From the IMG/VR virus record IMGVR_UViG_648276656_000011: a stretch of 6,695 nucleotides of DNA. One strand, written 5' to 3'. Positions 1,428 through 4,717 of this stretch are shown piece by piece (the first letter of the stretch is position 1; each line of letters starts with the position of its first letter). Origin of the DNA: a virus. Lineage: Duplodnaviria > Heunggongvirae > Uroviricota > Caudoviricetes. The translations under genes were made by a program, and so were the position numbers. Below the pieces are notes generated by a model. That model was not told the DNA's origin. It did no database searches and saw nothing but the letters and a program-made list of their open reading frames with translations.

Positions 1428-1598
1428 TCAAGCTACAGCTTTAAGATTTGTCTGGAATACTTTGTTGCAATGAGGGCAGATCAAAAGGGCACCTTTTTGT
1501 ACTCTTGAAAAACTGTGTTCTGACTCTTGGGTGCAGTTTGGGCAGGAACATTTAACGAGATAATTACGGCGTGATTTTGAGTCTTTACGTTCTGACAT
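1428..1598 (-). CDS. Small zinc-ribbon protein (56 aa, CxCPxC...CPHC), hypothetical
   Basis: The minus-strand ORF track gives 73 aa, but the internal ATG (plus-strand 1596-1598) has SD AGGAAAAG 6 nt upstream, whereas the first Met has none. Translation MSERKDSKSRRNYLVKCSCPNCTQESEHSFSRVQKGALLICPHCNKVFQTNLKAVA carries four Cys in a zinc-ribbon arrangement. Confidence 0.55.
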   Translation of the reverse strand: MSERKDSKSRRNYLVKCSCPNCTQESEHSFSRVQKGALLICPHCNKVFQTNLKAVA

Positions 1599-1607
1599 AG
1601 GCTTTTC

Positions 1608-1629
1608 CTGTATAAATGGCCGTATACAG
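1608..1629. promoter_or_regulatory. Perfect palindrome CTGTATA-N8-TATACAG abutting the RBS of the zinc-ribbon gene
   Basis: Direct reading: ctgtata (1608-1614), aatggccg, tatacag (1623-1629). Either an operator for a dimeric DNA-binding protein or an mRNA hairpin next to the SD. Confidence 0.5.
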
Positions 1630-1816
1630 TACACTAAATATGAAAACATATCTCGTATTATTATTTAATATATGATTTTCTTTTAAAATAATTACCCACA
1701 TTTTTAATGTGTCTGTTTTTTAGCGCCGTTGAGAACAACGTTTGCTATAAAAACTAACCCATAGACTCCGATCTTTTCAAACATATTGCACCATCTGTGT
1801 ACATCGGGGTGAGGAT

Positions 1817-2032
1817 ATGAAATCAATGGATAAGTTAACAACAGGTATCGCCTATGGCACATCGGCTGGTAATGCTGGTTTCTGGGCATTGCAGTTACTC
1901 GATAAAGTAACTCCGTCACAGTGGGCTGCAATCGGTGTGCTGGGTAGTCTGGTTTTTGGCCTGCTGACGTATCTGACAAACCTTTATTTCAAGATTAAAG
2001 AAGACAGGCGTAAGGTTGCGAGAAGAGAGTAA
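1817..2032 (+). CDS. essQ: Class II holin / pinholin, phage-21 S-type, with dual-start motif (71 aa)
   Basis: [71 protein letters not shown] closely resembles the S21 pinholin from memory. The Met1-Lys-Ser-Met4 start fits the antiholin/holin dual-start arrangement. Strong SD GGGGTGAGGA upstream. Positioned as in Qin (cspB - essQ - ydfR - rrrQ). Confidence 0.85.
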
Positions 2033-2036
2033 TCCA

Positions 2037-2588
2037 ATGACACAAGACTATGAACTGGTTGTGAAAGGAGTCCGCAATTTTGAGAATAAAGTGGCGGTAA
2101 CTGTAGCCTTACGGGACAAAAAACGCTTTGACGGTGAAATTTTTGACCTGGACATCTCGCTGGACCGTGTTGAAGGTGCCGCGCTGGAGTTTTATGAGGC
2201 AGCAGCCAGAATGAGAATCAGACAGGTATTCCTGGATGTTGCTGCCGGGTTATGTGTAGGGGATGAGCAGTCGCTGGAAAAGCGCCCCATAATTTTAGAG
2301 GCGCAGAATGTGTGGATAACCTACAAAGGAAAGCTACCGGGAAGAATTACTGGTTCTCTGAAGACGCCACCGACGGCATTGCGGTCAGAAAAAGATGATA
2401 TTGAATCGCCCATTGAAAAACTGGAGGGCAGCGTCGCTGATCTGAATAAAAAATTGTCGGTGCTGATCCCTTCTGAAGATGAAAAAAAACGCCGCGATGA
2501 GCAGTTTGCGGCGTTTTACGATTATTGCATTGAAGTTACTCGCAGGAATTTTGTGAAGATTTTTGAGGAGGGTAAATCTCTTCAGTAA
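2037..2588 (+). CDS. ydfR: YdfR-family lysis-cassette protein with a long C-terminal extension (183 aa from ATG 2037)
   Basis: The tracked ORF starts at TTG 2016 inside the holin gene; the ATG at 2037 lies 4 nt after the holin stop and gives MTQDYELVVKGVRNFENKV..., which I recognise as the N-terminus of Qin YdfR (recalled as DUF1327, ~100 aa in K-12). Here the frame stays open to 183 aa. Its antisense frame is Phe-rich junk, supporting plus-strand coding. Confidence 0.65.
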   Translation: MTQDYELVVKGVRNFENKVAVTVALRDKKRFDGEIFDLDISLDRVEGAALEFYEAAARMRIRQVFLDVAAGLCVGDEQSLEKRPIILEAQNVWITYKGKLPGRITGSLKTPPTALRSEKDDIESPIEKLEGSVADLNKKLSVLIPSEDEKKRRDEQFAAFYDYCIEVTRRNFVKIFEEGKSLQ

Positions 2589-2796
2589 GCTTAATGGCGG
2601 ACGCTGCAATTAATTCAGGAAGGTCCGCAAGGTCATCTGTCAGTGGATATGATGAAAAATCGGCGGCAGTTCTGTTAAGAAGCGCTTTAACTAATTCCTT
2701 TTCCTTCTCCGGCAACAAGTTGATTAGAGCTACGACTGCTTGCCTGAGTGCGATTAAATCAGCAAAAGTTTGTTTTGGTAGATTTGTGTAATCCAT
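2536..2796 (-). CDS. Hypothetical small acidic protein (86 aa), convergent with and overlapping the ydfR-like 3' end
   Basis: ATG at plus-strand 2794-2796 is preceded on the minus strand by AGAGGTGA with a 5-nt spacer. Translation MDYTNLPKQTFADLIALRQAVVALINLLPEKEKELVKALLNRTAADFSSYPLTDDLADLPELIAASAIKLTEEIYPPQKSSQNSCE is helix-like and acidic with no signal peptide. The overlapping plus-frame ORF 2594..2791 looks less protein-like. Confidence 0.5.
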   Translation of the reverse strand: MDYTNLPKQTFADLIALRQAVVALINLLPEKEKELVKALLNRTAADFSSYPLTDDLADLPELIAASAIKLTEEIYPPQKSSQNSCE

Positions 2797-2909
2797 AGTC
2801 ACCTCTGTGTTTATCAGATTGACATCCTCCTCCCGCCAGTGCCCATCACTGGTGAGGTAAGATTTAACATATCCGGGGATTTGAAGCCGATAAATCCTGA
2901 TAAATATCC

Positions 2910-3937
<1,028 letters not shown>

Positions 3938-4094: not shown

Positions 4095-4170
4095 TGTGTT
4101 TTTCTTTACAAAAGTAATCCTTGCTATGGTTGGTTAATCATGCGTTAATGGTGTTCTGGTTTGTTACAAA
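4095..4170 (+). promoter_or_regulatory. cspI promoter and cold-box-like 5'UTR start
   Basis: AT-rich 4095-4120, TTGCTA 4121-4126, 17-nt spacer, GTTAATG 4144-4150, then CTGGTTTGTTACAAA. Parallels the cspB upstream region (shared ATGCGTTAATG...GGTTTG). Confidence 0.5.
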
Positions 4171-4300
4171 ATTATCTGAAGCAGTCATTGTTATAATTTT
4201 ATTATTTGTACCTCTTGAGATTTCCTTGTTGGTTTTTCTCTCTGATATTTTTTTTCGGACCATTCTGCCCAAGGGCTAACTTCTTCAAAAGGTAATAATG

Positions 4301-4513
4301 ATGTTTAACAAAATGACTGGTTTAGTGAAATGGTTTAACCCTGAAAAAGGTTTTGGTTTCATCACGCCGAAAGATGGTAGCAAAGATGTGTTTGTGCATT
4401 TCTCAGCTATTCAGAGCAACGATTTCAAAACGTTAACTGAGAATCAGGAAGTCGAATTTGGTATTGAGAACGGACCTAAAGGCCCTGCAGCTGTTCATGT
4501 AGTGGCACTTTGA
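4301..4513 (+). CDS. cspI: Cold-shock protein CspI (70 aa from the second ATG)
   Basis: [70 protein letters not shown] matches CspI from memory. Tandem ATGs at 4298 and 4301; AAGG lies 6 or 9 nt upstream. Confidence 0.9.
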
Positions 4514-4717
4514 GGTAGAAAATATTACAAACCATATTCACTTTAGATGCCCGTGTTGCCATGGTTCTCAGTATAGAACATCATCTTTTGATGTTTCTGA
4601 CAGAAATCCTTTCGGGGCAAAATGTATCTTTTGTAAATCAATGATGATTACATTTGATAATATTTCACAATACTTAAATGTTAGCCATCTGTCGTTAGAT
4701 TTAAGAAAGTGAAAATG

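Follow-up and report, generated by a model that had tools for sequence, protein, structure and literature searches.

The 183-amino-acid (aa) open reading frame (ORF) at positions 2037 to 2588 of the window, by which we mean the whole 6,695-nucleotide stretch of DNA that was analyzed, is probably a genuine and intact long form of the YdfR (DUF1327) family that consists of two units, with docking on RNase E proposed for one and association through a coil proposed for the other. The architecture, in which DUF1327 (aa 1 to 112) is followed by a TALR joint and a coil module (aa 117 to 183), is very likely, and the RNase E part of the reading, which is drawn by analogy, is put forward only tentatively. 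The two units, each of which is also found separately, are joined in frame by four residues, and either a fusion or a fission may account for the joined and separate states. The 183-aa protein is an ordinary product of phage gene shuffling: the long YdfR form is no anomaly and does not point to decay of the K-12 gene, and it ranks as a standard mosaic variant among several.

In the window, a Qin-like segment of lambdoid prophage from Escherichia coli, the gene order is cspF (minus strand), cspB, ynfU (minus strand), essQ, the 183-aa ORF, a convergent 86-aa ORF (minus strand), rrrQ, rzpQ, and cspI. The 183-aa gene lies between the holin and endolysin genes of a lambdoid late operon, which is the position of the YdfR family, and only 4 nt separate the essQ stop codon from its start. 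The ORF finder extended the frame upstream to a TTG at 2016; we place the start at 2037 because all homologues begin with MTQ. The features of the region are as follows:

1817 to 2032, plus strand: essQ, a class II (phage 21 S-type) holin of 71 aa (Pfam Phage_holin_2_1, E = 7e-34; named essQ in the CFT073 annotation)
2037 to 2588, plus strand: YdfR-family ORF, ATG at 2037 and TAA at 2586 to 2588, 183 aa
2037 to 2252, plus strand: DUF1327 N-terminal core (aa 1 to 72), with three predicted beta strands and one predicted helix, common to K-12 YdfR
2253 to 2372, plus strand: DUF1327 middle segment (aa 73 to 112), also found in the 114/116-aa forms; K-12 has a short tail of unrelated sequence instead
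2373 to 2384, plus strand: four-residue joint TALR (aa 113 to 116); the 116-aa form ends in ..KTPPESQP and a stop codon, and Met1 of the free-standing coil gene aligns with S117
2385 to 2588, plus strand: two-helix coil module (aa 117 to 183 and the stop codon), the counterpart of the free-standing 67-aa gene P0199
2536 to 2796, minus strand: convergent 86-aa ORF (PHROG 2572), overlapping the last 53 nt of the YdfR-like ORF
2910 to 3443, plus strand: rrrQ, a lysozyme of 177 aa (Pfam Phage_lysozyme, E = 3e-24), at the downstream edge of the variable slot
3440 to 3937, plus strand: rzpQ, an Rz-like spanin gene

Homology with all compared loci returns at ~2835 to 2900, near rrrQ. Rfam and tRNA scans found no RNA genes inside 2037 to 2910, and the sites returned by a promoter and terminator scan of 1650 to 3000 were no more numerous than in shuffled sequence. 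The lysis cassette is flanked by three cold-shock genes, cspB, cspI, and, on the minus strand, cspF; cspB and cspI are covered together with their leaders by two full-length Rfam cspA thermoregulator matches on the plus strand (688 to 1127 and 4143 to 4559, 160 and 105 bits). Between cspB and the holin gene, a ynfU-like ORF of 73 aa (1428 to 1649, minus strand) contains two CxxC pairs and is putatively zinc binding. Embedded in rzpQ in another frame is an ORF with a lipobox-like LTSC motif (3591 to 3887, plus strand), which occupies the place where the K-12 annotation has the o-spanin gene rzoQ.

The 183-aa form is already catalogued, as PHROG 2091, as an NCBI “YdfR family protein,” and in phage PhiR63_1. 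The protein matches the PHROG 2091 profile from end to end (positions 1 to 183 of 183, E = 9.4e-111), which places this form far beyond chance. Its exact sequence is deposited at NCBI as EFK01911.1, with 681 members in the 90%-identity cluster, and the isolated phage PhiR63_1 carries the gene at 97% identity. Positions 1800 to 3000 of the window are 99.9% identical to the corresponding DNA of CFT073, S88, APEC O1, and others, and the exact arrangement is present in 267 of 5,426 complete E. coli genomes (1800 to 3000, at least 80% coverage). A comparison of the 183-aa protein with NCBIfam named families and PADLOC defence proteins gave no match at E ≤ 0.1, and in the literature on ydfR or DUF1327 we found no description of the two-unit make-up of the long form.

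Pfam assigns residues 1 to 112 to DUF1327 (PF07041) with a score of 138.1 bits, the gathering cut-off being 25 (E = 1.2e-40; positions 1 to 92 of the 93 in the profile). The first-pass annotation, which was made from the DNA alone, had recognized the N-terminal 70 to 100 residues as matching YdfR of the Qin prophage, and the alignments bear this out: the window protein and K-12 YdfR are identical at 62 of 83 positions in the aligned part and at about 60 of 72 (~83%, counted from the alignment) over aa 1 to 72. By sequence, this core is taken to be equivalent to the published RNase E-binding fragment of K-12 YdfR. The comparison of lengths was also correct. The ydfR gene of K-12 MG1655 (b1555, P76160; Qin prophage) is annotated with 312 nt and 103 aa, so that the window protein, at 183 aa, is indeed almost twice as long. 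At the DNA level, 93% identity to K-12 Qin extends over 1800 to 2242, ends abruptly, and resumes at 2900, at the start of rrrQ; blastn of the window against Qin found no similarity between 2243 and 2899.

The C-terminal half had been described as charged, in agreement with the 41% of charged residues that we counted over the last 71 positions. A protein search with this half alone returned mostly fragments but surfaced P0199, a free-standing 67-aa gene found on 393 contigs, with the sequence MNPEEMNRRISRLENEIAELNKKLSVQIPSEDEKKRRDEQFAAFYDYCIEVTRRNFVKIFEESKSLQ. Residues 126 to 183 of the window protein are identical to P0199 at 50 of 58 positions (86%, E = 1e-35), and both proteins end in ..KSLQ. 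In five loci of Stx-type prophages (L021 to L025), a P0199-type gene starts 4 nt past the holin stop codon, with no DUF1327 gene and with the endolysin gene downstream. The coil module of the window is not a separate gene: it stands in frame behind DUF1327, with no stop or start codon between them. The same module forms the N-terminus of a 161-aa protein in the Stx2a phage Stx2_499 and of the 209-aa protein P0157 in locus L014, which also has the C-domain of the 296-aa YdfR form. Thus, of the two explanations that the first-pass annotation had proposed for the extra length, the fusion of an additional domain is the one that the data favor, since aa 117 to 183 correspond to a free-standing gene and the module also heads proteins without DUF1327. 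Across 16 sequences from varied contexts, the 19-residue motif S-x-D-E-K-K-R-R-D-E-Q-x-A-A-F-Y-D-x-C is almost fully invariant.

Downstream of P0157 in L014 lies a divergent stand-alone DUF1327 gene (924 to 1151) encoding 75 aa, the core alone, and the order of this locus, with the gene for coil and C-domain followed by DUF1327, is the reverse of that in the fused proteins. In P0134 (L015, 3001 to 3546), the coil module and part of the middle segment stand behind an unrelated 80-residue N-terminus, and the gene is situated upstream of a different lysis cassette, comprising Phage_holin_8, Phage_holin_3_7, and a GH108 endolysin. Pfam returned only sub-threshold coiled-coil families for the C-terminal half (CLZ, E = 0.07; ABC_tran_CTD, E = 0.12). 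A weak match to the PARP1 BRCT region in a PDB profile search (E = 0.004) was taken as compositional and discarded.

Structure prediction of the C-terminal half, as the first-pass annotation had advised, was carried out with AF2 on aa 113 to 183 alone and gave two helices (114 to 143 and 147 to 182) at a pLDDT of 85; the pTM of 0.45 makes the mutual packing of the two helices uncertain. In the best heptad register of helix 1 (aa 117 to 146), seven of eight a/d residues are strongly hydrophobic (K-I-I-L-V-L-L-L), as in a coiled coil or leucine zipper, and this helix may oligomerize. Modeling of the whole protein, from an alignment of 24 sequences, was poor (pLDDT 54), with low confidence at 70 to 127 and again two helices in the C-terminal part. 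In the N-terminal core it placed strands at 5 to 14, 18 to 27, and 34 to 43 and a helix at 50 to 73, with pLDDT values of 60 to 81. Foldseek of the whole model against the PDB returned nothing below E = 0.12, and the model of the C-terminal half gave zero Foldseek matches. The 183-aa protein has no membrane segment (maximum 19-residue Kyte-Doolittle mean of 0.96, versus 1.72 for the neighboring holin) and would therefore probably be soluble; we propose that it resides in the cytoplasm.

A search of 1.84 billion representative proteins yielded only 75 relatives, some of which match the C-terminal half only. Judged by source names, this small family is confined to prophages of Escherichia, Shigella, and Salmonella. 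Lengths of 103, 114 to 116, 176, 183, 211, 268, and 296 aa occur in the YdfR family; among the best 120 of the 90%-identity clusters, a list biased to relatives of the query, the lengths peak at 114 to 116, 176, 183, 211, and 296 aa. The 5,426 complete E. coli genomes were searched with junction-specific DNA probes, with at least 80% of a probe having to be covered for a match:

Junction from DUF1327 to the endolysin (114/116-aa form): 2,169 of 5,426 genomes, the commonest form
Junction to the K-12-type tail: 1,775 of 5,426 genomes
Junction of DUF1327 fused to the coil (176, 183, 211, 296 aa, and similar): 810 of 5,426 genomes
Junction from the holin to a free-standing coil gene: 270 of 5,426 genomes

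The family has no single normal length, and 183 aa is a common, catalogued variant. The possibility, entertained earlier, that ~180 aa might prove to be the norm was therefore half right: forms of 176 to 183 aa are indeed common and catalogued, but the family is multimodal and its commonest forms have 103 and 114 to 116 aa.

DNA comparisons of the forms show nested mosaic breakpoints and not point damage. Homology to the window ends at 2242 in K-12 Qin, at 2372 (codon 112) in the 116-aa form (L011), where it resumes at 2883, and at 2485 (codon 150) in the 296-aa form (L005), where it resumes at 2901. The 211-aa form (L008 and L009) is homologous to position 2452 and then continuously from 2480, and in the Salmonella 168-aa form (L003) the N-terminal core has 73% DNA identity and positions 2384 to 3000 have 91%. 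The interval that separates the holin gene from the endolysin gene is a hot spot for recombination.

The frame through the C-terminal half is open in variants from E. coli, E. albertii, E. fergusonii, Shigella, and Salmonella. The most widespread long-form variant, a 176-aa protein found on 463 contigs (P0004), lacks exactly GSVADLN (window aa 131 to 137), a deletion of one heptad of helix 1 that preserves the coiled-coil register, while the 211-aa form is 28 aa longer than the window protein, likewise in frame. For the C-terminal half, dN/dS ranges from 0.28 to 0.89 and is below 1 in 8 of 8 comparisons, which contain few substitutions and in some pairs cross replaced segments; with values of 0.6 to 0.9 in some pairs, constraint on this half appears only moderate. 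In CFT073 (NC_004431), PGAP annotates only aa 1 to 112, as a pseudogene with a “missing C-terminus” (C_RS30310; L001 6238 to 6573, corresponding to window 2037 to 2372). We read this label as an annotation artefact: CFT073 has an intact ORF, whose product departs from the window protein at a single residue (L79P). Eight RefSeq rows match the C-terminal half at 98% identity or above, and only one of them has a YdfR annotation over this half.

The convergent 86-aa antisense ORF is present beside every form ending in ..KSLQ that was examined and absent beside the 116-aa and 296-aa forms. In the five free-standing P0199 loci, the antisense region follows the coil gene, and the 86-aa ORF is called in two of them, again with an overlap of 53 nt. 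The antisense ORF thus appears to travel with the ..KSLQ coil module as one cassette. Its relatives are at least 77% identical, save for one weak Salmonella match. With such close relatives, a dN/dS of ~0.6 to 0.8, and no Pfam match at E ≤ 0.1, it is treated here as a putative gene only. By eye, a GAGG Shine-Dalgarno sequence can be seen a few nucleotides upstream of its ATG at 2796; the scan of 1650 to 3000 gave no promoter upstream of it. A plus-strand ORF at 2594 to 2791 has its wobble position in common with the antisense ORF, of which it seems to be a shadow. The antisense ORFs that Stx2 phage 86 and L014 have in this position are not homologous to that of the window, and the “DUF1823” label given to the antisense ORF in phage PhiR5_1 was not reproduced by Pfam at E ≤ 0.1.

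The other explanation proposed earlier for the difference in length was that the long form is ancestral and K-12 YdfR truncated, that is, a frameshift or deletion remnant of a 183-aa or longer protein in a decaying Qin. Qin is indeed a cryptic, decayed prophage and longer YdfR forms are widespread, and a 206-aa protein (P0141) combines a K-12-type tail with 100 more residues, so that the K-12 type may have lost something. However, K-12 YdfR spans the whole Pfam DUF1327 model (1 to 93 of 93) at 180 bits, its stop codon overlaps the rrrQ start (ATGA) in a typical intact operon junction, and the K-12-type junction is at least 99% identical in 1,753 genomes. The similarity ends at a clean mosaic breakpoint and not at an indel, and the frameshift relics that the first-pass annotation had suggested looking for in K-12 were not found: with tblastn, window aa 71 to 183 gave only chance-level matches in any frame of 10 kb of Qin (best E = 0.39). 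Because the breakpoints are nested, the Pfam model is fully covered, and Qin holds no relic, K-12 YdfR is best described as the entire core domain followed by a short tail of another sequence; the two proteins differ in module content and not through decay, and truncation in K-12 is very unlikely. We give still less credence to an accidental read-through into a neighboring cassette, which would make the ORF in effect a pseudogene, or a protein of 112 aa followed by a meaningless tail. The restriction of the PGAP feature to aa 1 to 112 with a pseudogene flag in CFT073, the dN/dS of the C-terminal half exceeding that of the N-terminal core in several pairs, the antisense ORF overlapping the 3' end, and the occurrence of frameshifted variants (P0077) would all fit such an accident. 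It is contradicted by the intact ORF of CFT073, by the 393 contigs on which a separate gene with a start codon of its own encodes the C-terminal residues, by the indels, all of which were in frame and one of which is exactly one heptad, and by the near invariance of the 19-residue motif in different contexts. It also fits poorly with the comparison of E. coli with Salmonella, in which the C-terminal module is 91% identical in protein sequence while the N-terminal core has diverged to 55%.

The gene abuts the holin stop codon and has a class II holin on one side and an R21-type lysozyme on the other, and this location raises another alternative, in which the protein would set the timing of lysis by acting, as an antiholin or an endolysin chaperone does, on either the pinholin or the SAR endolysin, and would have no role in RNA metabolism. 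A genetic screen that tied ydfR to envelope integrity, cited in PMC13232886, is in line with such a role. Yet the protein, unlike known antiholins, has no membrane segment or signal sequence, and the slot varies greatly in what it contains (DUF1327 or the coil by itself, the two together, or additional domains), which speaks against an integral component of the lysis machinery. The only direct experimental evidence implicates RNase E (PMC13232886), and we consider a lysis regulator unlikely.

We return to the reading of the ORF as an intact two-unit YdfR protein and to what its units might do. The statement of the first-pass annotation that the function of this family is unknown is partly outdated, as aa 1 to 72 of K-12 YdfR bind the catalytic half of RNase E (PMC13232886). 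A two-hybrid screen by Gopel et al. (2026), in which RNase G was the bait, yielded codons 1 to 72 of ydfR; K-12 YdfR bound RNase E 1-597 in the two-hybrid assay, and RNase E 1-598 was copurified with Strep-YdfR (PMC13232886). DNase-resistant nucleic acid (RNA) coeluted with tagged full-length YdfR, and overexpression of ydfR altered few transcripts (PMC13232886). As the core of the window protein is ~83% identical to aa 1 to 72 of K-12 YdfR, its partner may be RNase E as well, and the docking site proposed for the N-terminal core is the catalytic half of RNase E or RNase G of the host, with RNA as a further possible ligand; for the 183-aa form, this binding is inferred by extrapolation from its paralogue K-12 YdfR. 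The leucine-zipper-like helix pair would most likely serve self-association or binding to a shared partner. An association module is likely because the coil is common to proteins with different other domains in the slot. The position of the gene directly behind the holin gene suggests late expression together with the lysis genes.

In such a scheme, the coil would be an adaptor common to different effector domains of the holin-endolysin slot. A bolder version, which we regard as doubtful, is that the module is a shared docking or oligomerization adaptor that brings exchangeable effector domains to a single common target in the host at a late stage of infection. If so, the effectors would comprise DUF1327, a candidate for RNase E binding, and two or more further C-terminal domains as yet uncharacterized, with lambdoid and Stx prophages as the users, and the window protein would represent the smallest “effector plus adaptor” combination in a so far undescribed modular system for host takeover. 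The locus also exposes a systematic annotation gap, visible in the PGAP pseudogene of CFT073 and in the C-terminal 71 codons that are left outside YdfR in most of the RefSeq rows inspected. The natural variants (core alone, core and coil, coil alone, and coil with other domains) provide a cheap handle for following up the RNase E report.

Compared with known relatives, the 183-aa protein shares parts with each and the whole combination with none of the following. K-12 YdfR occupies the same position between essQ and rrrQ, has the same N-terminal core, and also passes Pfam DUF1327, but beyond residue ~72 its sequence is an unrelated tail of 31 residues, terminating on the rrrQ start, and its locus is without the middle segment (aa 73 to 112), the coil module, and the antisense ORF of the window. 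The 114- to 116-aa forms (P0087, P0109; PHROG 406) have the same architecture as aa 1 to 112, with 102 of 112 residues identical in P0087 (91%), and lie between the same holin and lysozyme; their last residues are ..KTPPESQP or ..KTPPEF, and the endolysin follows directly, whereas the window has ~510 extra nucleotides (2373 to ~2883) containing the coil module and the antisense ORF. In the 268- to 296-aa forms (P0050, P0089; PHROG 1085; gp05 of Stx2 phage 86), DUF1327 is like that of the window protein, and the 296-aa form also has the first coil helix, with DNA homology to window position 2485 (aa 150). These proteins have an additional C-terminal domain of ~125 residues with no Pfam match, whereas the window ORF ends after helix 2; the 296-aa loci are without the antisense ORF of the window, and Stx2 phage 86 has an unrelated one. 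Finally, the free-standing P0199, which is related to PHROG 36381 and 15975, has its own ATG and first ~17 codons that have diverged (MNPEEMNRRISRLENEI versus SEKDDIESPIEKLEGSV), but it is collinear with aa 117 to 183 of the window protein up to the same C-terminal end.
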